Below are positions 20,992 to 54,595 of a stretch of 64,000 bases of DNA, piece by piece; the stretch's first letter is position 1, and each line of letters starts with the position of its first letter. The notes under the pieces were generated by a model. The model searched no databases. It was not told the origin of the DNA and saw only the letters and a program-made list of their open reading frames with translations. The position numbers were made by a program, and so were the translations under genes. Location: NCBI GenBank assembly GCA_039801085.1, contig JBDRTY010000001.1, positions 310,852 through 374,851 of the forward strand. Direction: 5' to 3'. This stretch comes from a candidate division WOR-3 bacterium. GTDB lineage: Bacteria > Hydrothermota > Tepidihabitantia > Tepidihabitantales > Tepidihabitantaceae.

Positions 20992-23613
20992 TCAGGGTTC
21001 GGTGACAACAATCAGCCGGTCGGGTTTGATGTCTTTGAGGGTCACGGTCTTGCCCGGGGCAAACCGGACCTGAACCGTGACCGGCCGGTCCGAGCTGCCC
21101 AGGCCGAAGTGGGCTAAAAGGGAGTTCTGGCTGGTGGTGCCTTTCCCACCCTCAATCTCGCGGATATAACGCTTTCTGCCCTGAATCACCGTGACCCGGG
21201 CGCCAATACCGCAGGCGTTGTGTTTTGTGCCGACTACCCGGACCTTGAGCCAGTGGTTGCCGTTTTTCGTGTCGTTGCGGAAGAGGCGCAGGCCGGAGCC
21301 GGAGCCAACCACCAGATCGAGATCGCCGTCGTTGTCAAAATCAGCCAGGGCACAGCCCCAGCCGTTGAAGACCCGGGTGCCGGAAAGATAGGTGGCTTCC
21401 GCAAAGGGGTAGTTGCCGAAGAGGTTCTGCCAGCCGGCAGTCGCCTGGCGCGGTGCGGGGTTGAGCTGGTTGAGGTAGAGGAAGGAGCGCCGGTTTTCAT
21501 AAACGGAGGTGATGTAGAGGTCGAGATCGCCGTCGTTGTCTAGGTCGCCAAATGCCGGATCAGAGTGGGTCTCTTCGTAGCGGATGCCAAGCCGGGCGCG
21601 GCGGTCAAGGAAGCGGGGCTTCGCCTTCGGTCCGCGGTTTTCGTAGAGCAGGGAGCGGTCGGAGAATTCTATGTAGCGGGGATGGGCAAGGTTGGCACAG
21701 AAGAGGTCGAGGTCGCCGTCGTTGTCAAAATCTGCCCAGACCGAGCCGATGGTATGGCCAAACCAGCCGGAAATCTCATTGCCGGCAATCCCCAGTTTCG
21801 GGGCAAGGTTGGTGAAGGTGGAGTCGCCGTTGTTGTGCCAGAGGAGGTTCTGGCAGAGGCGGTAGTTGGCAACATGGCAGTCCGGATCACCGTCGTCATC
21901 GTAATCACCCCAGTTGACACCTCTGCCCGCAAGGTCCTCACCATAGGGCGGAGTGATGCCGGCACGGGTGGTGATGTCCTGAAATCTGCCCTGCTGGTTT
22001 TGATAGAGCCGGTCCGGATACCAGGTGTGTTTTTCCCAGTTTTCGTAGTTGGCACAGTAGAGGTCGAGCCAGCCGTCAAGGTCAAAGTCGGCAGCAGCAC
22101 AGCCTTCGGTCGGATAGGGGTCCGAGGGGTTGCCGAGCGATTCGGTGGCGTTGCGGAATCTGCCGCAGTGGTTGAGGAGGAGCCAGTCCTGAGTGTCCGC
22201 ACCGCAGATGTAGAGATCGAGCCAGCCATCGTTGTTAAAGTCGGCAAAGATGCCACCCCTGCCCCGGATGCCCGTAAGTCCCGCTGAATCGGTGAGTTCG
22301 GTGAAGTGTCTGCCGGAGTCGTTGCGGAAGAGGCGGGAGCCGTTGAGCAGGAGGTCTTCAAAGCCGTCATTGTTAAAATCGCCCCAGGCAACCCGGGATT
22401 CCCGGCAGCCGGCAAGTCCGGCCGAGTCGGTGATGTCGGTGAAGACCGGTCCGGTGTAGGAGAGTTGCTGGCGGGCAAGCATAAGCTGCCGGGCAGGGGG
22501 GATGCCGAGCCGCTGGAGCGCGGTGTCTGCCCGGGCAGACCAGTAGTTGCGAGAGTCGCCGAGTACGAGCGCGGTCAGGTAGCAGAGCCGGGCGCTGTCG
22601 GGCCTGCCCAGCCGGGAGTAGGCATCGCCGAGCAGGGACCAGAAGGGTGCAGGGGTGAATTCGTTTTCGGTGTCCCAGGAGAATTGTTGCAGGGCTTCGT
22701 AAAGCACGGGCAGTGCCTCCCGGGGGCGGTCCTGAAGGATGAGCGCCTCAGCGAGCGCGGCACGGGCAAGTCCGGCAAGGGGCGGGTATTCGAGCTGCCA
22801 CTGGGCAGGGGGTTTGTTTTTCGGCTTTTTCGCTCTGGGCGCCAGCTGGAGCGCACGGCGGGCATACTGTTCCGCAAGCCGGGGCCGGAATCGGAGCCGG
22901 TTGTAGAGGGCAGCGGCATAGCGGTAGCGGAAGGGGTCCAGGGAGTCGTCTTTGAGCATCTCCCCGGTGAAGTGGGCAAGACCGAGGGTGTCGTTCAGGG
23001 CGTAGAGTGAGCTCAGGAGATAGATGTAGAAGGTCTGGCGCCATTCGGTCCTGGGATAGCGGGCAAGGAAGCGGGAGATGACCAGGACTTTGGCGGTGTC
23101 GTTGGTCCAGACCGGATAGAGGGAGTCGTAGAAGGCAGAGCCGATGAGTTCATAAACCGGGGCTGAGTCCGGATATTTGAATGCCAGGACGCTGAAGGCG
23201 CGCCGGGCACGGAGGGAGTCTTCGCCGAGGACAAAGCCGGCGTGGGCAAGGAGGAGGTTGCGGTAGGTGGTGTCAATGAAGTAGCCGCCGGCTTCAGCGC
23301 GGATGAGCTGGCGGACCGAGTCGAGCCGGGCGGAGTCCGGGCGGTGAAGGTTGCAGAGCGCCTGCCATCTGCCAATGACCGCCGAGTCGTCGTCGGGCCT
23401 TGCTTTCAGCACCTTTTCCCAGAAGTAGAGGCTGGAGTCGTACCGGCGCCAGTGATCATAGACCCGGGCAAGGTCTTTGAGCAGTGCCGGGTTTTGCGGC
23501 TGGCGCTGGAGCCGGGCGTAGTAATAATCGGTGGCAGCCGGATAGTCCTGCCGGGCAAGAAAGTCCTGCAGTGCCGGCCGGGCGGTGAGGATGAGGAGTG
23601 AAATCAGGAGCAT
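20992..23613 (-). CDS. TPR + FG-GAP/VCBS-repeat + ASPIC/UnbV-domain protein (CRTAC1-like)
   Basis: N-terminal TPR-like helices. Seven repeats of ADFNNDGWLDLY / DFDNDGDLDL type. C-terminal UnbV/ASPIC-like segment. Confidence 0.6.
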   Translation of the reverse strand: MLLISLLILTARPALQDFLARQDYPAATDYYYARLQRQPQNPALLKDLARVYDHWRRYDSSLYFWEKVLKARPDDDSAVIGRWQALCNLHRPDSARLDSVRQLIRAEAGGYFIDTTYRNLLLAHAGFVLGEDSLRARRAFSVLAFKYPDSAPVYELIGSAFYDSLYPVWTNDTAKVLVISRFLARYPRTEWRQTFYIYLLSSLYALNDTLGLAHFTGEMLKDDSLDPFRYRYAAALYNRLRFRPRLAEQYARRALQLAPRAKKPKNKPPAQWQLEYPPLAGLARAALAEALILQDRPREALPVLYEALQQFSWDTENEFTPAPFWSLLGDAYSRLGRPDSARLCYLTALVLGDSRNYWSARADTALQRLGIPPARQLMLARQQLSYTGPVFTDITDSAGLAGCRESRVAWGDFNNDGFEDLLLNGSRLFRNDSGRHFTELTDSAGLTGIRGRGGIFADFNNDGWLDLYICGADTQDWLLLNHCGRFRNATESLGNPSDPYPTEGCAAADFDLDGWLDLYCANYENWEKHTWYPDRLYQNQQGRFQDITTRAGITPPYGEDLAGRGVNWGDYDDDGDPDCHVANYRLCQNLLWHNNGDSTFTNLAPKLGIAGNEISGWFGHTIGSVWADFDNDGDLDLFCANLAHPRYIEFSDRSLLYENRGPKAKPRFLDRRARLGIRYEETHSDPAFGDLDNDGDLDLYITSVYENRRSFLYLNQLNPAPRQATAGWQNLFGNYPFAEATYLSGTRVFNGWGCALADFDNDGDLDLVVGSGSGLRLFRNDTKNGNHWLKVRVVGTKHNACGIGARVTVIQGRKRYIREIEGGKGTTSQNSLLAHFGLGSSDRPVTVQVRFAPGKTVTLKDIKPDRLIVVTEP

Positions 23614-23654: not shown

Positions 23655-24773
23655 TTAAAGCAGGGGCAGTTCGTAGAGCCGGTAGCGCTTGTAGATCCTG
23701 CCACCGATCGCCAGGTCAAACTGGTTGATCGGGTCGTTGTCCTCGAGGTTCCAGCCGAGTTCGCACCATTTGTAACCTTTGCGTGCGGCATTGCGCTCAG
23801 TCTCGTAATAAAGCACCGCAATGATGCCGGTGTTGCGGAACTCCTTTTTGACCCCGCCAATCAACGCCCGAACACCATCAATCCTTTTGCGGTAATAGAG
23901 CAGTTTGACCAGCTCCAGCGGTCCGAGCCTGCCATTGAGGTGTCTGAGCACCTGATTCCAGTCCGGAATGGTGACCGTGACTCCGACCGGCTGACCGTCA
24001 ATTTCCGCAAAGAGCACCAGGTCCGGATCAGCAAGCTGTTTCAGCTTGCGGGCGGTCAGGTCCATCTCCTTGTCGGTCATGGGCACAAAGCCCCAGTTTT
24101 TCTCCCAGGCGGAGTTGTAGATGTCCTTGAGAAACTGGATGTCCCGCTCAAACCGCTTCATATCAAAGGGACGGACCCTGACGCCGGTGCGGCGCTTGAT
24201 CGCATTGATCATCCGCTCAATCCGCTCCGGAATGCCGTCGGCTGCCAGTTTCAGGAGGGCATAAAGGTCCTTTGCCTTGTGGAAGCCGTAGCGCTCGGCG
24301 AACTCCAGGTAGTATTTATGCGTGTAAGGCATCATGATCGTCGGCGGTTGAGCAAAACCTTCCAGCAGGAAGGCACATTCGTCGTTGAGGCTGGGGTTGA
24401 CCGGTCCGCGCAGCCGTTCCATTCCCTGATTTTTCACCCATTCGCGGGCGGTATCCCACAGTTTTTCGGCAACCAGGTAGTCTTCAATACATTCAAAGAA
24501 GCCGAAGAAGCCGGTCTTTTCCTGATGAAAGCGGTTGTGGTTGTCGTCAATAATCGCCGCAATTCTGCCGACCGGCGTTGCATTCTGCCGGGCAAGGAAC
24601 AGTTCGCGCCGGGCATGCTCCCAGAACGGGTTTTTTGCGGTGTCAAGGGTCTCATGGACCTCGGAAATCAGGGGCGGCACCCAGTAGGGGTTGCCCTGAT
24701 AGACTTTCCAGGGGAGGCGGATGAAGTCAGTCAGGTCTTTTTTGCTCCGGACCGGTTCAATTGAAATTCCCAT
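23655..24773 (-). CDS. Hypothetical protein, possibly a GNAT-fold N-acyltransferase family member
   Basis: 372 aa with good coding composition. Only a weak resemblance to two-domain GNAT/FemAB-like proteins. Confidence 0.35.
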   Translation of the reverse strand: MGISIEPVRSKKDLTDFIRLPWKVYQGNPYWVPPLISEVHETLDTAKNPFWEHARRELFLARQNATPVGRIAAIIDDNHNRFHQEKTGFFGFFECIEDYLVAEKLWDTAREWVKNQGMERLRGPVNPSLNDECAFLLEGFAQPPTIMMPYTHKYYLEFAERYGFHKAKDLYALLKLAADGIPERIERMINAIKRRTGVRVRPFDMKRFERDIQFLKDIYNSAWEKNWGFVPMTDKEMDLTARKLKQLADPDLVLFAEIDGQPVGVTVTIPDWNQVLRHLNGRLGPLELVKLLYYRKRIDGVRALIGGVKKEFRNTGIIAVLYYETERNAARKGYKWCELGWNLEDNDPINQFDLAIGGRIYKRYRLYELPLL

Positions 24774-24901: not shown

Positions 24902-26488
24902 ATGGTCAGAATATTACCACTGGCTTTGATGCTCGCAGCCGGGCTGGCAATGCCACCCGCACCGGGTTTTCAGGGACCGATGCCGGTCTTTCCGCCCGGG
25001 GTCGAGGTTCCCGGTCCGAATAAACTGAAGGGTTATGATTTCTGCGAGACGGTGACGATCCTGATGCAGTTTCCGGACAACCGGGCAGACACGGTTGAGC
25101 ATTCACCTGCCAGGTTTGATTCCATGCTGTATTCGACCGGGGTCTACAATAATGCGCCCTACCGGGCAGGGAGTCTGAACGATTTCTTTCTGGAGAACTC
25201 TTATGGTCGGTATTCGGTGCGGGGCGGGGTTGCCGGCAATCGGTGGTTTCTGTCCCGGTACAATTATTCCCGGTATTATGACGGTAATTACATGCTTTCC
25301 ACCGGCGGTCAGCTTGCCCGGGAGAATCTCGAGCAGGTGGATTCGTTTGTTGATTTCCGGGAGTATGACATTGATGGGGACGGGCATGTTGATGCGCTGT
25401 TTATGGTTCATGCCGGGGCGGACGGCGCGGATAATGGGGATGTGAATTGTTGCTGGTCGCATGCGATTCCCGGTTTTAATTACCGGACGAATGATGGGGT
25501 GGTCATTGACGGGGTGACGAATGTGCCGGAGTTTGCCATGGTGACCGAAACCCGGGATACAACGCTGTGTTGTATTGCGGTGATGTGTCATGAGCTGGGG
25601 CATCTGGTCGGGCTGCCGGATCTGTATGACTATTCCCGTTACAGCTGGGGTGTGGGCTATTGGGGGCTGATGGGCTATGGTGCCTGGGGTGCGGGCGGTA
25701 ATACGCCGTGGAGTCCGGCGCATATGGAGGCGTGGAGTAAGGTTGAGGCCGGTTTTGTGCAGCCGGTGGTGATTGCCCGCGATACTTTCGGGCTGCGGAT
25801 TGTGGATGTGGAGACCCATCCGGTGGTCTATAAGGTCTGGCGTCAGGGGAGGAGTTGTGATACCTGTTTTCTGCTGGAGAATCGGCAGAGGAAGGGGTTT
25901 GATGCGCTGCTGCCCGGGTCCGGGCTTTTGATCTGGCACATTGACCCGTATTACAGCGCCTATCATAATCGGGTGGATCTGGAGGAGGATTCGACTAATC
26001 ATCTGGACCGGGGTAACGGGGTGAGGCCGGATCCGCATGTCTATCATGAGGCGCTGGGCGATACCTCAGATCCGCTGCCCGGGATCTGGAACCGCACGAG
26101 TTTTGATAACTGGTCCAATCCTTCGAGCCGGGCAAGGAACGGTCAGCCGACCTGGGTGAGTGTGAGGAATATCCGGGAGGTGGGGGATACGATTGTGTGC
26201 GATGTGAGTTTTGACTCAAGTCAGGTTGGAGTTGAGGAGCCGGAGCGCCGGGTGCCGGGGTTGAGGGTTGAGCCGGGGATATCCCGGTCCGGATTCAGAG
26301 TTGAGGTTGAGGGGGGAGGACCGGTTGCGGTGGCAGTTTTCAGTAGTGATGGCAGGAGGGTTTGGAGCGGAGTGGTGCCGGAGCGGGGCTGGTGGAAGGG
26401 GGTTGACAGTCAGGGGCGGAGGGTTGGGAGCGGTGTTTATCTGGTGCGCGCCGGGAGTTTGACCCGGAGGGTGGTGTTGGAGCGATAG
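24902..26488 (+). CDS. M6-family (immune inhibitor A-like) zinc metallopeptidase with a T9SS C-terminal domain
   Basis: HExxH as CHELGH, with TIGR03296-like flanking motifs (MVHAGADGA, WSHA). Signal peptide. C-terminal CTD ...GVYLVRAGSLTRRVVLER. Confidence 0.65.
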   Translation: MVRILPLALMLAAGLAMPPAPGFQGPMPVFPPGVEVPGPNKLKGYDFCETVTILMQFPDNRADTVEHSPARFDSMLYSTGVYNNAPYRAGSLNDFFLENSYGRYSVRGGVAGNRWFLSRYNYSRYYDGNYMLSTGGQLARENLEQVDSFVDFREYDIDGDGHVDALFMVHAGADGADNGDVNCCWSHAIPGFNYRTNDGVVIDGVTNVPEFAMVTETRDTTLCCIAVMCHELGHLVGLPDLYDYSRYSWGVGYWGLMGYGAWGAGGNTPWSPAHMEAWSKVEAGFVQPVVIARDTFGLRIVDVETHPVVYKVWRQGRSCDTCFLLENRQRKGFDALLPGSGLLIWHIDPYYSAYHNRVDLEEDSTNHLDRGNGVRPDPHVYHEALGDTSDPLPGIWNRTSFDNWSNPSSRARNGQPTWVSVRNIREVGDTIVCDVSFDSSQVGVEEPERRVPGLRVEPGISRSGFRVEVEGGGPVAVAVFSSDGRRVWSGVVPERGWWKGVDSQGRRVGSGVYLVRAGSLTRRVVLER

Positions 26489-26496
26489 GAGGAGGA

Positions 26497-29367
26497 ATGG
26501 TCAGGATTAGCGGGTTGCTGTTGATATTCAGTGTTTTGGGGTTTGCGGTTGAGCCGCCGGAATACGGGCTGGATTCGGTTGCGCGGAGGGCGCTGGAGGA
26601 GGCGCTGGAGGTTCAGGGGATGCGGGAGGAGGAGCTGGGGTTTTTTAAGTTGTGGGCGGTTGACAGTTTTTTCCGGCTGCGGGTGGTGGAGCGGCTGCTT
26701 TCCGGTCCGCTGGAGGTTTTGCCTTATGTTGAGGGGCAGGCCGAGGTTGTGCGGGCGCGGTGTCGGAATCGGGCAGGGCTGGTGCGGCATCTTTATAATG
26801 AGGTCGATGTCGGGCTGGAGCGCCGGGATTCGCTGCGGGTGGCAGGGGAGGTTGCCAGGGAGCTGGAGCGGAGGGGCGGTTGTGTCGGGGTTGAGGGTGC
26901 GGTGAATGTCATTGCCGCCGGGTTTGCGGTGGGGAGGCGGTATCTGGAGCGGGCGGTGGCAGGGATTTCCCAGGAGGAGCTGGATGTTCTGGTTGGCGAG
27001 GCGCCCGGTTTTTGGCGGGATGAGGATGATACGCTGGAGCGGGGTTTTGCCGGACGGCTGCATGAGGAGTTCGGCCGGGTTTATGATACGAGCCGGGAGG
27101 TTAAGTCCGAGACGCTTTTGGCATATGCCCGTAAGATCGATCGCCGGGCGCTGGCACTTGCCGGGCTGGCGGTGGTGGGCGCGGTGGAGCGGGCGGTGGC
27201 GGTTTTGAGGGCTGTGCCCAGGGATTCAGGGGGGAGTTTTACGGTTGAGGGGGTGAGAGGAGGGGTGGTTTTTTGTCAGGAGAGTGAGTGGGGGAGGGTT
27301 GTTGTCGGCGGTGTGGGTGATAATGTTTATGAGGCGCCGGCAGCGGTAGTTATTGATCTCGGGGGTAATGATATCTATTATAACCGGGCAGGCGGGGCGG
27401 TCGGCATTCTGGATCACCCGTTCGGGGTGGTGATTGACCTTGAGGGTGATGACCATTATCTTTCCGAGAGGCTTTTTTCCCAGGGGGCGGCGCTTTTCGG
27501 GTGCGGGGTGCTTTTTGATCTTGCCGGGGATGATGTGTATCGCGGTGGTCACTATAGTCAGGGGGCAGGTGTGTTCGGGACCGGTGTGGTTTATGATGGG
27601 GGAGGAAGTGATATTTATGATGCGGGTTTTTTTGCCCAGGGAGCGGGTCATTACGGGGTCGGAGTGGTGGTTGATGAGGCAGGGAATGACAGTTACCGTT
27701 CTTTCTGTTATTGTCAGGGGTTTGCCGGGACCTGGGGGTACGGGCTGCTCGCAGAGCTGGGGGGGAATGATCTTTATTATGCGGGCGGAAAATATAAGCA
27801 TGAGCCGCTTTTGCCCAGGGAGTACCGGTCGTTTGCCCAGGGTTATGCGATCGGGGTGAGGCCGGATGCCGGCGGGGGGATCGGTTTTCTGTGTGATTTT
27901 CAGGGGAATGATTTTTATAATGCCGAGGTCTATGCCCAGGGGACGAGTTACTGGTATTCACTCGGGATGCTTTATGACCAGGAGGGTTTTGACCATTATA
28001 CCGCTGCCCAGTATTCGCAGGGCGCAGGGATTCACCTGTCAGTGGGCGCACTGGTGGATGAGGAGGGGAATGATTCGTATTTTTCCCGGCTTGGTCCGAG
28101 TCAGGGGGAGGGGCATGATCTTTCAGTCGGGGTGCTGGTGGACCGTAAGGGGGATGACGGTTATTATGCGTCTGGCGGGCAGGGGATCGGGCTGACGAAT
28201 TCGGTTGGGCTGTTTGTTGACCAGGATGGTAATGACTGGTATATGGCATCAGAGTCGCTGATCAGTCAGGGCTCGGCGAACTGGGCACGGGGGTTCGGCG
28301 GGATCGGGCTGTTTCTGGATTTGGCAGGGAGGGACTGGTATCCGGGGAGGAATGTGGCAGGAGATCAGAACCGGTGGACCAAGGGGACCTACGGGTCAGG
28401 AGTTGATCTGCCCCGGCCGGCAACGGTGGTTGACTGGGAGCCGGATGTTGACACTTCCGAGGCGAGCATTGATTCGGTGATCACCGCACCGGTGGAGAGT
28501 GTGTTTAAGACCGCATCGATCTGGGCGGTGGGGAATGCCCGGAAGAGGGTGCTGCGGGCAAGAAAGGAGCTGATCCGGCTGGGGAGAAAAGCAGTGGAGT
28601 ATGTCGTTGAGCATAAGCTGGATACCAAGGACGGGCTGGAGTCGGAGGCGATTGCCGCATTGATGAGGGCGCTGCCCGATACCGCCAAGCCTTATCTTTT
28701 CCGGGGGCTGCGGGATGAGCGGTTTCTCGCCCGGCAGAATTCGGCTTACTGGCTGGGGGAGATGGGCAGTAATGCCCGGGATGCGGTGGATTCAATTCTG
28801 CTGGCACTCAAAGAGAAGCGGATTACACCCAGACGGGCGGTTTATGCGCTGGGGTCAATCGGTGATTCGCTGGTGGTGCCGGAGATTCTTTATCTCCTGA
28901 GGGATACAATGGAGGTTTCCCGGATCGTGACCGCAGAGGCGTGCGGTAAGCTGAAGAATCCGGTGGCGATTGAGCCGCTGATCGCAACTCTGAATGATCC
29001 GCTGTTTACCGTGCGGAGTGCCGCCGAGGCGGGGCTGGTCGCCATCGGGGAGCCGAGCGTTGACCCGCTGCTCCGGAGTCTGGCGGAACAGAAGGTGCCG
29101 GCATTGGGGCACAGTATCCGGGCGCTGGGGCAGATCGCGGTAAAACTTGACAGCGTTCAGGCAGAACCGGTAAGGCAGAAGTGCCGGAACCGGCTTGTCT
29201 CCTGTCTCCGGCATCCGGCACCGTTTGTCCGGCTGTGTACCGTGGAGGCGCTGGGCCGGATGCTGGACAGTGAAACCCGGGCGCGGCTGCGGGCAGAAAT
29301 GGAGAGGGAAACCGACCTGTTTGTGCTTAATGCCTACCGGCAGGTGCTGAGTGCTCCCGGAAAGTAA
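26497..29367 (+). CDS. Large secreted repeat protein: about 12 tandem 22-aa G(N/D)D-x-Y...QG-x-G repeats (beta-helix-like), plus C-terminal HEAT/PBS-lyase repeats
   Basis: Repeats GNDIYY, GDDHYL, GDDVYRG, GSDIYDA, GNDSYRS, GNDLYYAG, GNDFYNA, GFDHYTA, GNDSYFS, GDDGYYAS, GNDWYMA, GRDWYPG. HEAT-like AVYALGSIGD..., ACGKLKNPVAIEPLIATLND. Confidence 0.55.
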   Translation: MVRISGLLLIFSVLGFAVEPPEYGLDSVARRALEEALEVQGMREEELGFFKLWAVDSFFRLRVVERLLSGPLEVLPYVEGQAEVVRARCRNRAGLVRHLYNEVDVGLERRDSLRVAGEVARELERRGGCVGVEGAVNVIAAGFAVGRRYLERAVAGISQEELDVLVGEAPGFWRDEDDTLERGFAGRLHEEFGRVYDTSREVKSETLLAYARKIDRRALALAGLAVVGAVERAVAVLRAVPRDSGGSFTVEGVRGGVVFCQESEWGRVVVGGVGDNVYEAPAAVVIDLGGNDIYYNRAGGAVGILDHPFGVVIDLEGDDHYLSERLFSQGAALFGCGVLFDLAGDDVYRGGHYSQGAGVFGTGVVYDGGGSDIYDAGFFAQGAGHYGVGVVVDEAGNDSYRSFCYCQGFAGTWGYGLLAELGGNDLYYAGGKYKHEPLLPREYRSFAQGYAIGVRPDAGGGIGFLCDFQGNDFYNAEVYAQGTSYWYSLGMLYDQEGFDHYTAAQYSQGAGIHLSVGALVDEEGNDSYFSRLGPSQGEGHDLSVGVLVDRKGDDGYYASGGQGIGLTNSVGLFVDQDGNDWYMASESLISQGSANWARGFGGIGLFLDLAGRDWYPGRNVAGDQNRWTKGTYGSGVDLPRPATVVDWEPDVDTSEASIDSVITAPVESVFKTASIWAVGNARKRVLRARKELIRLGRKAVEYVVEHKLDTKDGLESEAIAALMRALPDTAKPYLFRGLRDERFLARQNSAYWLGEMGSNARDAVDSILLALKEKRITPRRAVYALGSIGDSLVVPEILYLLRDTMEVSRIVTAEACGKLKNPVAIEPLIATLNDPLFTVRSAAEAGLVAIGEPSVDPLLRSLAEQKVPALGHSIRALGQIAVKLDSVQAEPVRQKCRNRLVSCLRHPAPFVRLCTVEALGRMLDSETRARLRAEMERETDLFVLNAYRQVLSAPGK

Positions 29368-29405: not shown

Positions 29406-30080
29406 ATGCGCATGCTGACATTAACTTTAATGGTGTTCAGTCTGGCGGCGGCGGTTAACATTCTGCCCAACCCCTCATTTGAGGTCTGGCTGGATACGCT
29501 GGGCGTGAACATGCCGCTGGGCTGGTTGACCTCAGAGCTTACCCATCCGGGTTCGGCACAGAAGGATACCATCAGTCATTCCGGTTTCTACGCGCTGAAG
29601 CTGACTGGCGGGGATACGGTGGCGTTTGCCACTTCGGTTACGGTTGTCCGGAGTGGACTGAGTTATGAGTTCAGCGGTTATGCCAATGTGCCCGGAATCG
29701 TCAGCGGCGGGTTTGTGCTTCAGTTTCTGACCCTGAGTGGCGGTCTGATCGGTACACCGCAGTTGATCCCGGTCTATTATTCCAGTGGTTACCGGCGCTA
29801 TTCCCGCTGGATCACCGCACCCGATTCGGCATTTTTTCTTACGGTGTCGTGCATCGCTCTGCCCGGCGGTTTGGTTTATTTCGATGATGTTACGGTCGAT
29901 GACACCTCACTTCTCGGCATTAGGCAGCCGGCACCAAACAGACCATCTCGCCTCCGGATAAGCAAGCTGGTGGCACCGGTTCCCTTCGGCAGTGCACCGG
30001 AAGTCCGGCTTTATGATGTCCTGGGCCGCCGGGTTTACGGGCGGAAACGGACCGGAGTCTATTTTCTCATCTCCGAGTGA
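29406..30080 (+). CDS. Small secreted protein with a CBM4/9-like N-terminal region (NILPNPSFE) and a short T9SS-like C-terminus
   Basis: Signal peptide. Ends ...EVRLYDVLGRRVYGRKRTGVYFLISE. Confidence 0.4.
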   Translation: MRMLTLTLMVFSLAAAVNILPNPSFEVWLDTLGVNMPLGWLTSELTHPGSAQKDTISHSGFYALKLTGGDTVAFATSVTVVRSGLSYEFSGYANVPGIVSGGFVLQFLTLSGGLIGTPQLIPVYYSSGYRRYSRWITAPDSAFFLTVSCIALPGGLVYFDDVTVDDTSLLGIRQPAPNRPSRLRISKLVAPVPFGSAPEVRLYDVLGRRVYGRKRTGVYFLISE

Positions 30081-30127
30081 GCGCATACGGGGATTGACAT
30101 CGGTAATTTGGTGATTATCATTGACCC

Positions 30128-32029
30128 GTGATTAAGGTTGTTGTCCAAGGAGAGGAACGGCAGGTTGAACCGGGTTTGACTGCCGGTGCCCTGCTTGCTG
30201 ATGAGCGGGCGCTGGCGGCGCGGGTGAACGGCCGGCTGGTGGATCTTTCCTTCCGGATTGAGGAGGATGCCACAATCGAGCCGGTGTATTTTGAGTCCCG
30301 GGAGGGCAGGGAGATCTTCTGGCATTCGGCTTCGCATCTGATGGCGCAGGCGGTGAAGCAGCTTTATCCCGAGGCAAAGGTGACGATCGGTCCGGCGGTG
30401 CCCGAGGGGTTTTATTATGATTTTGATGTTCCTGAGCCGTTTACCGAGAAGGATCTGGAGAGAATTGAGGCAAGGATGCGCGAGCTGGCGACACAAAAGA
30501 TTCCGATTGTCCACAGGTATCTGCCCCGGAAGGAGGCGCTGAAGCTTTTCTCCGGGCGGAATGAGACTTATAAGCTGGAGATTATTAACGAGATCCCGGA
30601 TGAGCAGATATCGGTCTATGAGCAGGGGGATTTTGTTGATCTGTGCCGGGGACCGCATGTTCCAGATACCGGCAGGATTAAGGCGGTTAAGCTTCTGAGT
30701 GTTGCCGGTGCCTACTGGCGCGGTGATGAGCGGAACCGGATGCTTTCCCGGATTTACGGGGTCGCCTTTCCGGATGAGGCGCTGCTTAAGGAGCATCTGG
30801 AGCGGCTGGAGGAGGCAAAACGGCGCGATCACCGGAGGCTGGGACCGGCGCTGGGGCTGTTCAGTTTTCATGAGGAGGCGGGTGCCGGGCTGGTGTTCTG
30901 GCATCCAAAAGGGGCAACAGTTCGCCGGCTGATTCAGGAGTACTGGGAGAGGGAGCATTTAGCTGCCGGCTATCAGCTGGTGGTGACACCGCATATCGCC
31001 CGGAGTCAGCTGTGGCATCAGTCCGGACATTATGATTATTACCGGGAGAATATGTATATTCTGCCAGTGGAGAATGAGGAGTATGTGCTGAAGCCGATGA
31101 ATTGTCCCGGGCATATTCTGATTTACCGGACCAGGGTCCATTCCTATCGGGAGCTGCCGTTGCGGATGGCTGAATGGGGCACAGTTTACCGCTATGAGCG
31201 TTCCGGTGTGCTGCACGGGATGATGCGGGTAAGGGGGTTTACTCAGGATGATGCCCATATCTTCTGCACCCGGGAGCAGGTGGAGGAGGAGATTTACGGT
31301 GTGGTGGCGCTGGCACTGAAGATGCTGCGGCAGTTCGGGTTTGAGCGGTTCTCGGTATCCCTGTCGGTCCGGGACCCGAAGCATCCGGAGAGGTATCTGG
31401 GTACGGATGAGCAGTGGCAGGTGGCAGAGGGTTCGCTCGTTAAGGCGCTGGAGCGGGTGGGGCTGGATTTCGTCCGGGCTGAGGGGGAGGCGGTGTTTTA
31501 CGGTCCGAAGATCGATATCCATCTCGCCGATTCGCTGGGCCGGGAGTTTCAGTGTTCTACCTGTCAGTTTGATTTCAATCTGGGTGGCAAGTTTGATGTG
31601 TATTATATGGATCAGTATGGTCAGCATCTGCCGGTCTATCTGGTGCACCGGACCGTCCTGGGTTCAATCGAGCGGTTTATGGGGATCCTGGTTGAGCATT
31701 ACGGCGGGGCGTTTCCGGTCTGGCTGGCACCGGTGCAGGCGCGGGTGATGACCGTGACCGAGAAGGAGAACGGCTATGCGCAGGAGGTTTACGAGGCACT
31801 GCGAAAGGCTGATGTCAGAGTTGAAATTGATCTGAATAATGATAAAATTAACTACAAAATTGGTGAGGCAGAGCGGGAGAAGATTCCCTTTATGCTGGTG
31901 GTCGGGGCACGCGAAGCCGAGGCAAGGACCGTCGCACTCCGCCGCCGGGGTAAGGGGAATCTGGGCGCAATGCCGCTGGAGAAGGTAATAGCACTAATCA
32001 AGGAGGAAGAATCTGGAAGGACACGGTGA
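30128..32029 (+). CDS. thrS: Threonine--tRNA ligase
   Basis: TGS N-terminal domain, class II aaRS motifs, HxxxH, C-terminal anticodon-binding domain. 633 aa. Confidence 0.9.
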   Translation: MIKVVVQGEERQVEPGLTAGALLADERALAARVNGRLVDLSFRIEEDATIEPVYFESREGREIFWHSASHLMAQAVKQLYPEAKVTIGPAVPEGFYYDFDVPEPFTEKDLERIEARMRELATQKIPIVHRYLPRKEALKLFSGRNETYKLEIINEIPDEQISVYEQGDFVDLCRGPHVPDTGRIKAVKLLSVAGAYWRGDERNRMLSRIYGVAFPDEALLKEHLERLEEAKRRDHRRLGPALGLFSFHEEAGAGLVFWHPKGATVRRLIQEYWEREHLAAGYQLVVTPHIARSQLWHQSGHYDYYRENMYILPVENEEYVLKPMNCPGHILIYRTRVHSYRELPLRMAEWGTVYRYERSGVLHGMMRVRGFTQDDAHIFCTREQVEEEIYGVVALALKMLRQFGFERFSVSLSVRDPKHPERYLGTDEQWQVAEGSLVKALERVGLDFVRAEGEAVFYGPKIDIHLADSLGREFQCSTCQFDFNLGGKFDVYYMDQYGQHLPVYLVHRTVLGSIERFMGILVEHYGGAFPVWLAPVQARVMTVTEKENGYAQEVYEALRKADVRVEIDLNNDKINYKIGEAEREKIPFMLVVGAREAEARTVALRRRGKGNLGAMPLEKVIALIKEEESGRTR

Positions 32030-32033
32030 GCAG

Positions 32034-32564
32034 GTGGTGAGGGAGGGACTTAAGGACCGGCCCAGGGCAAATGAGCAGATCAGAGTGCCGTATGTCCGGG
32101 TGATCGGGGTGGATAAGCGGCCGATCGGTATCCTGCCGACACGGGAGGCGATTGCCTTAGCCCGGCGGCAGAATCTGGATCTGGTGATGCTGGCGCCGAA
32201 TGAGGAGCCACCGGTCTGCGGGATCATGGACCTGGGACGGTACCTGTATGAGCAGAAGGCTCGACAGCGGGAGTCGAAGAAGAAGCAGCATCAGACCCAG
32301 GTGCGGCAGATACGGATGAAGATGAAGATTGACAAGCACGACTATGAGGTGAAGCTGAAGAAGATGCGCGAGTTTCTGGCAGATAAGGACCGGATCAAGC
32401 TCGTGCTCTGGCTGAGAGGACGGGAGGTGCTGCATACTGATCTGGCGATGCAGCTGATTGAACGGATCAAGCAGGACCTGGCAGATGTTGCCAAGGTGGA
32501 AGGACAGGTAAGACTTTTTGATGAAGGAAAGAAATCTATTCAGTTAATGCTGGTGCCAAAATGA
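32034..32564 (+). CDS. infC: Translation initiation factor IF-3 (GTG start)
   Basis: IRVPYVRVIGVDKRPIGIL...ALARRQNLDLV. Conserved position downstream of thrS. Confidence 0.85.
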   Translation: MVREGLKDRPRANEQIRVPYVRVIGVDKRPIGILPTREAIALARRQNLDLVMLAPNEEPPVCGIMDLGRYLYEQKARQRESKKKQHQTQVRQIRMKMKIDKHDYEVKLKKMREFLADKDRIKLVLWLRGREVLHTDLAMQLIERIKQDLADVAKVEGQVRLFDEGKKSIQLMLVPK

Positions 32565-33131: not shown

Positions 33132-33162
33132 TACCCGGATTCAGTCGCCGTAAAATAAAAAG

Positions 33163-33237
33163 TCGGGGCGACCCGATTTGAACGGGCGACCCCCAGCACC
33201 CCAAGCTGGTGCGCTAAACCAACTGCGCCACGCCCCG
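33163..33237 (-). tRNA. tRNA-Pro (anticodon GGG)
   Basis: Reverse complement gives acceptor CGGGGCG/CGCCCCG, anticodon loop TTGGGGT, T-loop TTCAAAT. Confidence 0.75.
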
Positions 33238-54333: not shown

Positions 54334-54341
54334 TAATTATA

Positions 54342-54415
54342 TACCCCGCGCAGGAATTGAACCTGCAACCCACGGATTAAGAATCCGTTGCTCTGCCAGG
54401 TTGAGCTAGCGGGGC
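54342..54415 (-). tRNA. tRNA-Lys (anticodon CTT)
   Basis: Acceptor GCCCCGC/GCGGGGT, anticodon loop TTCTTAA, T-loop TTCAATT. Confidence 0.75.
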
Positions 54416-54435
54416 ACAAATTACCATTTTTCATC

Positions 54436-54509
54436 TGCGCCCGGCGCGACTCGAACGCGCAGCCTACGGGTTCGAAGCCCGGCGCTCTATCCAGTTGAGC
54501 TACGGACGC
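54436..54509 (-). tRNA. tRNA-Arg (anticodon TCG). Identity is less certain because of one anticodon-stem mismatch.
   Basis: Acceptor GCGTCCG/CGGGCGC (one G-U pair), anticodon loop CTTCGAA, T-loop TTCGAGT. Confidence 0.6.
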
Positions 54510-54519
54510 ATGCATTCAG

Positions 54520-54595
54520 GGTGAGTGAGGGGACTCGAACCCCCAACATCCTGAGCCACAGTCAGGTGCTCTAACCGAATTGAGCTACACTCACC
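54520..54595 (-). tRNA. tRNA-His (anticodon GTG) with a genomically encoded G-1
   Basis: Extra 5' G paired to C73. Acceptor GTGAGTG/CACTCAC, anticodon loop CTGTGGC. Confidence 0.75.

Follow-up and report, generated by a model that had tools for sequence, protein, structure and literature searches.

An exported protein of three modules

The gene described here encodes a protein of 956 amino acids (aa) and lies in a 64,000-nucleotide stretch of DNA, hereafter the window, from a candidate division WOR-3 bacterium (contig JBDRTY010000001.1 of assembly GCA_039801085.1, positions 310,852 to 374,851). Its open reading frame (ORF) is real and starts with ATG, and neither further copies nor related ORFs were found besides it within the 64-kb window. 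The product is a Sec-exported three-module protein and not a cargo of the type IX secretion system (T9SS): the signal peptide is followed by a helical N-terminal domain (N-domain), a β-solenoid and an α-solenoid of HEAT repeats, and the gene of an M6 metallopeptidase lies directly upstream (Table 1). The N-domain and the right-handed β-helix, whose length is fixed at 12-13 coils, form a core that constitutes a very large unannotated protein family.

Table 1 Features at and around the gene of the 956-aa protein. Positions are counted from the first letter of the window; pLDDT, predicted local distance difference test.
Feature	Position	Strand	Evidence
Whole gene, 956 aa: signal peptide, helical N-domain, β-solenoid and HEAT array	26497..29367	+	ORF list, translation
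Sec-type signal peptide, aa 1-17: MVRISGLLLIFSVLGFA before the inferred cleavage site, VE after it	26497..26547	+	read from sequence
Helical N-domain, aa 27-239, no known relative	26575..27213	+	AlphaFold2 helices, pLDDT mostly 80-97
N-domain motif ELGFxKxWAxDSFFRLxxVxxLLxxPL, aa 46-72, the sole one conserved superfamily-wide	26632..26712	+	alignments
Right-handed β-solenoid, aa 248-637: 12 coils of 26-28 aa and a degenerate first coil	27238..28407	+	
Best-conserved stretch in the family: insertion at aa 440-459 and coils 7-10	27814..28206	+	per-coil conservation, 149 representatives
Acidic low-confidence linker, aa 638-665	28408..28491	+	pLDDT 32-40; low conservation, low occupancy
HEAT/PBS-type α-solenoid, aa 666-952; encoded separately downstream in many relatives	28492..29352	+	
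M6 metallopeptidase, 528 aa: signal peptide, HELGH, weak T9SS-type tail	24902..26488	+	TIGR03296, 161 bits
Intergenic spacer GAGGAGGA, 8 nt, Shine-Dalgarno-like, from the M6 stop codon to the ATG	26489..26496	+	sequence
Exported protein, 224 aa, unknown family	29406..30080	+	no family match, only an 18-bit NTTRR-F1
873-aa protein: TPR repeats, six FG-GAP_3/VCBS repeats, C-terminal UnbV_ASPIC domain	20992..23613	-	family matches
372-aa protein, weak GNAT acetyltransferase match	23655..24773	-	divergent from the M6 gene
thrS-infC pair	30128..32564	+	TIGR00418, 703 bits; TIGR00168, 181 bits

The Sec-type signal, which the original prediction had proposed to look for, is present in the sequence, and a hydrophobic N-terminal segment was found in 322 of 366 family members; export looks general across the core family. 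Other destinations were considered and set aside. Status as a lipoprotein or as T9SS cargo was rejected because a lipobox cysteine (by reading of the sequence) and a T9SS C-terminal domain (CTD; by Pfam and NCBIfam) are both missing from the window protein. The lack of such a domain, claimed earlier, was borne out, with no match of the 956-aa protein to Por_Secre_tail or TIGR04183 and a C-terminus that is HEAT. Twin-arginine (Tat) export, prompted by a TatC gene upstream in six loci, was likewise rejected, as no more than 8 of 369 N-termini contain an RR-like motif; members linked to TatC carry ordinary Sec signals, and the N-terminus of the window protein is devoid of a twin-arginine motif.

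Pfam matches on the window protein were limited to HEAT_2 (59.9 bits against a gathering score of 27.7), HEAT (31.2 against 23.5) and HEAT_PBS (24.2 against 20.9), all in the last third, in agreement with the earlier assignment of the C-terminal third to HEAT/PBS-type repeats. Among PBS-lyase-type HEAT proteins, this part resembles CpcF, YibA from E. coli and the designed alphaRep. The protein nevertheless fell far below the cut-offs of the CpcE/CpcF equivalogs (34.1 bits against 330 and 28.7 against 220) and, unlike HEAT proteins of the CpcE/CpcF/YibA type, its HEAT module is exported rather than cytoplasmic and always coupled to a β-helix core. For the N-domain, no Pfam or NCBIfam match at E ≤ 10 and no significant Foldseek or PDB-profile match was obtained. 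Within its conserved motif, residues L47, F49, K51, W53, D56, P71 and L72 are invariant in alignment A1, and the D-x-FRL ... P-L portion is retained in alignments A3, A4 and A6. AlphaFold2, supplied with a 34-sequence alignment, returned a full-length model with a mean pLDDT of 82.4 and a predicted template modelling score (pTM) of 0.77, and a model of aa 1-660 with values of 82.6 and 0.88, respectively.

A 27-residue repeat and the family that carries it

Twelve G-x-D-x-[YFW] cores punctuate the solenoid (at aa 290, 317, 344, 370, 396, 423, 470, 497, 524, 552, 578 and 611), together with a thirteenth, degenerate one (GDNVY at aa 274), against a chance expectation for this motif of 0.72 on average and 6 at most in 5000 residue shuffles. 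The original prediction of about 12 tandem G(N/D)D-x-Y repeats was therefore correct in number, but its repeat length of 22 aa and spacing of 20-23 aa had to be revised: the cores follow one another at 26-28 aa, except for one 47-aa and one 33-aa interval, both of which contain conserved insertions. The repeat consensus is G-h-h-h-D(-3)-x-x-G(0)-(N/D)-D(+2)-x-Y(+4) ... Q(+11)-G(+12)-x-G, with D(-3) conserved at 96%, G(0) at 99%, and D(+2) and Y(+4) at 100% (34 members x 12 repeats), and with Q at position +11 in 38% family-wide. In the AlphaFold2 model, each repeat contributes a short third element besides its two main strands; despite their conservation, the insertion loops have low pLDDT values.

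The repeat could not be assigned to a described family, as had been anticipated. When the N-domain, solenoid and linker were scanned separately, none of the three had a meaningful Pfam or NCBIfam match at E ≤ 10, and the solenoid had no match at all; in the PDB, sequence queries with the protein itself and with a profile of 35 sequences retrieved only alphaRep/HEAT matches or helical-bias noise, and Foldseek with the aa 1-660 model found nothing in the PDB below E 2.4. The modelled solenoid has the stacked short-strand coils of the right-handed parallel β-helix fold (pectate-lyase-like), with fold matches to members of that class, and its predicted fold is similar to that of region IV of MpAFP (PDB 3p4g). 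The window protein contains a right-handed β-helix of a new 27-aa repeat whose turn motif resembles those of RTX (repeats-in-toxin) proteins and MpAFP.

MpAFP is a giant ice-binding adhesin of Marinomonas primoryensis exported by a type I secretion system (T1SS). Its region IV consists of thirteen RTX-like repeats of 19 aa that form a Ca2+-bound β-helix; within it lies the peptide IDAGTGNDEIYIK (PMC3492233), to which the window peptide VIDLGGNDIYYNR is close. The two proteins share about 13 coils, an extracytoplasmic site and, in each coil, a turn resembling h-D-x-G-x-G-N-D-x-h-Y. They differ in coil length (19 aa against 27 aa), region IV was absent from the phmmer (E ≤ 1) and profile (E ≤ 10) results against the PDB, and the window protein is not part of a giant T1SS adhesin and adds conserved insertions and the helical N-domain. 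RTX/HemolysinCabind proteins (GGxGxDxUx, PF00353) also have a G-(N/D)-D-x-(aromatic/hydrophobic) core after Gly/Asp, once per coil, in an exported β-structure, but with a period of 9 or 18 aa rather than 26-28 aa; the window protein is not built of tandem nonapeptides, has neither a C-terminal T1SS signal nor nearby T1SS genes, and bears a Sec signal peptide instead. By analogy with the Ca2+-bound β-helix of MpAFP, the RTX-like turn D-x-x-G-(N/D)-D-x-Y present in every coil most likely binds one Ca2+ per coil, and the β-helix would therefore fold only outside the cytoplasm.

Like its best fold matches, the protein could be a passive structural or adhesive surface protein (an adhesin, S-layer-like or ice/mineral-binding). 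We consider this very improbable, since its repeat number is fixed and its coils are individually conserved across phyla whereas adhesin repeat numbers vary, since it carries no anchor and no export signal of the T9SS, T1SS or type V secretion system, and since the flat Thr/Asx ice-binding array of MpAFP (PMC3492233) has no evident counterpart in the repeat profile, in which no Thr/Asx face is apparent.

When only the solenoid was used as a phmmer query, 3598 of 1.84 billion cluster representatives (50% identity) matched at E ≤ 1e-3, and 1693 did so at E ≤ 1e-30. Relatives of full length, about 950-1000 aa, were abundant (1646 matches), the closest being P0001 from a candidate division WOR-3 metagenome-assembled genome (MAG), with 98% identity. 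The window protein fits this family, with an N-domain and 12-13 coils homologous to those of 34 and 149 relatives and with coils 7-10 conserved. We confirmed 288 loci, taking one genome per GTDB species, and the 80 listed among them belong to WOR-3, Cloacimonadota, Latescibacterota, Edwardsbacteria, Stahlbacteria and Eisenbacteria; the phyla of the core family as a whole include WOR-3, Zixibacteria, Cloacimonadota, Latescibacterota and others, mostly of uncultured bacteria. Nearly all members have about 200-300 aa ahead of the solenoid, about half possess a C-terminal HEAT array, and many stop right after the solenoid (about 570-690 aa). The named short forms come from MAGs labelled Zixibacteria, WOR-3, FCB group, Planctomycetota and Deltaproteobacteria, all of them "hypothetical" and with no precomputed Pfam domain. 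The candidate division WOR-3 MAG CAZPVT01 encodes two paralogues, at loci L006 and L053, which are 75% and 65% identical to the window protein.

Members are called "hypothetical" or "HEAT repeat protein", and the present labels of the family rest only on the generic HEAT tail. At least 3598 clusters (50% identity) in hundreds of species of poorly known phyla are concerned, and two-thirds of the protein length is without a relative in Pfam, NCBIfam or the PDB. A literature search on this domain combination found nothing relevant. As far as sequence and structure libraries and the searchable literature show, the 27-aa repeat, the relative-less N-domain, the core-HEAT fusion/fission pair and the size of the family are new; the component folds, β-helix and HEAT, are of already known kinds. 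For annotators, the core with its 27-aa Ca2+-type repeat and its HEAT fusion/fission partner offers a new domain model.

Conservation, measured in 149 representatives of clusters at 50% identity, is maximal in the insertion at aa 440-459 and in coils 7-9 and much lower in the N-domain and HEAT module. Residues Q448, R455, Q481, Y485, W486, Y506, Q508, H513, H540, D541, N568 and R598 are near-invariant. Among these, W486, H513, H540 and N568 hold the same register position (+16) in successive coils, and Q481 and Q508 occupy the Q(+11) position of the repeat and are therefore probably part of a structural ladder.

The conserved H, D, Y and R on adjacent coils could instead form the Tyr/His/Asp/Arg site of a carbohydrate-active Ca2+ β-helix enzyme (a lyase, epimerase or hydrolase; cf. 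PL6, AlgE4/AlgG and GH28) acting on an envelope or extracellular polysaccharide. Enzymes of the PL6, AlgE4/AlgG and GH28 types are Ca2+-dependent β-helices with His/Tyr/Asp or Arg/Lys catalytic residues, and a Metallophos+CBM9 gene lies directly upstream of the target in one clade. Several results nonetheless make such an activity unlikely. Among the β-helix fold matches, the non-enzymatic ones (antifreeze protein, two-partner secretion (TPS) proteins and autotransporter adhesins) score higher than the enzymes; neither Beta_helix, Pectate_lyase, NosD and CASH in Pfam (E ≤ 10) nor the CAZy-type β-helix enzymes in Pfam or NCBIfam (PL1/3/6/9, GH28, AlgE/AlgG) gave a match; polysaccharide-utilisation or biosynthesis genes are not recurrent among the surveyed neighbours; and the fusion partners, described below, are protein-directed rather than carbohydrate-binding modules. 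More generally, right-handed β-helix proteins (TPS/autotransporter passengers, PL6/AlgE4/AlgG and tailspikes) have no family-level sequence similarity to the window protein and differ from it in repeat motif and domain context.

Partners of the core and a proposed role in the envelope

The HEAT module is the constant companion of the core and its partner in fusion and fission. Of 82 metagenome loci, 45 had HEAT fused to the core and 17 had it as the next gene, 13 showed no HEAT and 5 were cut off by a contig end, so that HEAT was fused or adjacent in 62 of the 75 informative ones. In WOR-3 the two are fused, and in relatives of the Zixibacteria type HEAT is encoded by the next gene and bears a separate signal peptide. 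Downstream of short forms, at a distance of 3-15 nt, the next gene encodes a HEAT protein of 310-330 aa (loci L085 and L086), and this split protein and the HEAT domain fused in the window protein align over their full lengths (29% over 294 aa, E 6e-27). These split partners bear signal peptides of their own (L086:5289-6278 and L085:9086-10048). The signal of the L086 partner (MKKLILILGIIACISLNAC...) resembles a lipoprotein signal. In some lineages the HEAT partner may be membrane-anchored. Besides HEAT, no conserved neighbour is universal, as seen by neighbour clustering (85 + 82 loci) and by a Pfam census of 87 upstream and 81 downstream genes. For experimenters, the split core-HEAT pair is a tractable two-protein system.

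The original prediction had focused on another neighbour, an M6 protease with a T9SS CTD directly upstream, of which the 956-aa protein was suggested as a possible substrate, inhibitor or partner. The M6 identity was confirmed (TIGR03296 at 161 bits, HELGH, 8-nt gap), whereas the CTD stayed below threshold (TIGR04183 at 14.5 bits against a cut-off of 23). Because the 8-nt gap, with its Shine-Dalgarno-like spacer, is too short to hold a terminator, and none was detected across the junction, the two genes are likely, judging from their sequence, to be co-transcribed within the window clade. This arrangement would suit a protein dedicated to the neighbouring M6 (InhA-like) protease as its substrate, inhibitor or chaperone, and so would the M6-target order, kept with gaps of 1-18 nt in all close relatives. 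Beyond these the pairing is lost: M6 as the directly upstream gene is confined to relatives that share at least 64% identity (L001/L002, L005-L010, L013, L024 and L051), corresponding to 9 of the roughly 72 GTDB species loci whose upstream sequence could be read and to 10 of 87 non-redundant upstream neighbours, and is absent near every relative of 61% identity or less and in all other phyla. Other clades have upstream a Metallophos+CBM9 gene (gap 0-18 nt), an oxaloacetate-decarboxylase-like gene, TatC, M23 (a neighbour in 3 loci) or others, including an Obg-like GTPase, with a histone-deacetylase-like gene downstream. M6 is a clade-specific neighbour and not a family-level partner, and the co-occurrence that the original prediction had itself chosen as its test is not conserved at family level. 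A dedicated role for the M6 protease is hence refuted as the function of the family and, with a core family vastly larger than the M6 pairing and HEAT as the conserved partner, quite improbable for the window protein.

In other lineages the core has further companions. In an hhalign comparison, the WOR-3 family matched a PDZ-fused family with a probability of 100% (E 1e-114) over aa 29-650, that is, over N-domain and solenoid. PDZ is fused to the core in P0197, P0248 and P0268, and a large branch carries it N-terminally. A search seeded with P0197 gave 280 proteins at E ≤ 1e-20, with PDZ in most of the top 50 or so and with HEAT-type and core-only forms also listed; its named members come from Planctomycetota, TA06, Nitrospirota, Tectomicrobia, one Bacteroidota MAG, Methylomirabilis, SAR324 and Schekmanbacteria. 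Protein P0438 combines the core with two PDZ domains, P0467 and P0451 have a C-terminal parvulin peptidyl-prolyl isomerase (PPIase) in the place of HEAT, and the core is fused to a Peptidase_M14 carboxypeptidase in P0262 and to an AAT/C45-like domain plus PDZ in P0244. In Cloacimonadota, a SurA/PpiD-like gene and a tricorn-type S41 peptidase flank the core gene, and in a Tectomicrobia MAG (L167:5030-12035) the PDZ-fused relative overlaps an upstream Peptidase_S58 gene by 4 nt and has a Peptidase_M10 gene two genes downstream. Since the core is fused to PDZ, parvulin, M14 and C45-like domains in other lineages, a link to envelope protein processing is plausible. SurA and PpiD, which carry parvulin domains, and the TPR adaptor NlpI, which works with the PDZ-protease Prc, offer an analogy of design only, with no relationship in sequence or fold: as in these systems, the core is exported and joined to parvulin (P0467), PDZ (the P0197 family) or a helical-repeat module, here HEAT.

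These fusions could also mean that the N-domain and β-helix themselves catalyse a reaction on proteins or peptides, as a hydrolase or foldase of a new family to which PDZ or HEAT would deliver substrate, with a putative active site in coils 7-10 made up of Y485, W486, Y506, H513, H540, D541, N568, R455 and R598. The clustering of near-invariant polar and aromatic residues on a few coils, the fixed coil number, the conserved low-pLDDT insertion loops, as functional loops would be, and the PDZ domain, a module usually attached to peptidases in bacteria, sitting directly on the core in a large subfamily without another catalytic domain are all compatible with this explanation. It remains an unlikely one, however, given that no known catalytic motif and no peptidase match by sequence or fold was detected, that H513, H540 and N568 share one register position and may be a structural ladder, and that some relatives contain a separate complete peptidase domain (M14 or C45-like), which an accessory role of the core fits better.

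The reading we prefer, to which we assign a probability of roughly 40%, is that of a Sec-exported, Ca2+-stabilised envelope scaffold that binds protein or peptide clients and works with peptidases and foldases. The β-helix, notably its conserved coils 7-10, and the HEAT solenoid would together provide the client-binding platform in the cell envelope, and this platform would act as an adaptor, scaffold or holdase alongside peptidases and foldases, with the co-transcribed M6 protease as one local partner in the window clade. Such a platform is suggested by the exchange of HEAT, in other lineages, for PDZ, a parvulin PPIase, an M14 carboxypeptidase or a C45-like amidase with PDZ. More tentatively, and with more doubt than belief, the core may be an unrecognised and widespread component of envelope proteostasis, either a new β-helix hydrolase/foldase or a periplasmic holdase/protease adaptor, that is coupled according to phylum to HEAT, PDZ, parvulin or a peptidase and is near-core in WOR-3, Zixibacteria, Cloacimonadota and related uncultured phyla. 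If the link to PDZ, parvulin and peptidases is a functional one, the family would be a new player in periplasmic protein quality control, or in secretion, within the FCB group and outside it.

Several points weigh against the scaffold. PDZ, HEAT and parvulin are promiscuous modules, and guilt by fusion is only suggestive; at four of five further loci with PDZ or parvulin forms there is no nearby peptidase, and the genes around the core otherwise vary widely, include many housekeeping genes and have HEAT as the sole common partner. We infer Ca2+ binding only from the turn motif and the modelled fold match, and Pfam HemolysinCabind (PF00353) had no match on aa 250-660 (hmmscan, E ≤ 10). Much of the conservation in coils 7-10 falls on ladder positions (Q at +11; W/H/H/N at +16) and may be structural rather than that of a binding site. 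In addition, no relative from a cultured organism was present among the matches listed.

Neighbouring genes and other features of the window

The M6 peptidase holds a DIDGDGHVD loop beside HELGH, and its orthologue at L005 matches EF-hand_5 (E 9.7e-5, 22.1 bits) under the gathering score of 25.9 bits; the sequence suggests a Ca2+ site in this peptidase. In CAZPVT01, M6 is directly upstream only of the L006 paralogue and is about 4 kb away at L053. At the Latescibacterota-labelled locus L003:2483-5349, DUF58 and BatA/VWA genes (Bat-operon-like) are located 0.9-5.5 kb upstream of a Metallophos+CBM9-target pair, the only instance among the neighbourhoods examined.

The 873-aa protein encoded upstream on the opposite strand is syntenic with the target in the close WOR-3 relatives L006, L009, L010, L013 and L024, and the 372-aa GNAT-like protein is kept beside M6 in the closest relatives. 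Downstream of the target, the 224-aa exported protein is conserved only in the closest clade (neighbour cluster c16, six loci including the window), and its C-terminus (...VRLYDVLGRRVYGRKRTGVYFLISE) resembles a short T9SS-type tail. A strong sigma70-like promoter match (11/12) was noted at 30094..30121, just upstream of thrS-infC. The window also contains seven tRNA genes (54341..54594 on the minus strand, 12889, 33162, 40646 and 51379), including a tight Lys-Arg-His cluster; six of the seven pass the Rfam gathering threshold, and tRNA-Pro(GGG) at 33162..33237 was called by ARAGORN only.

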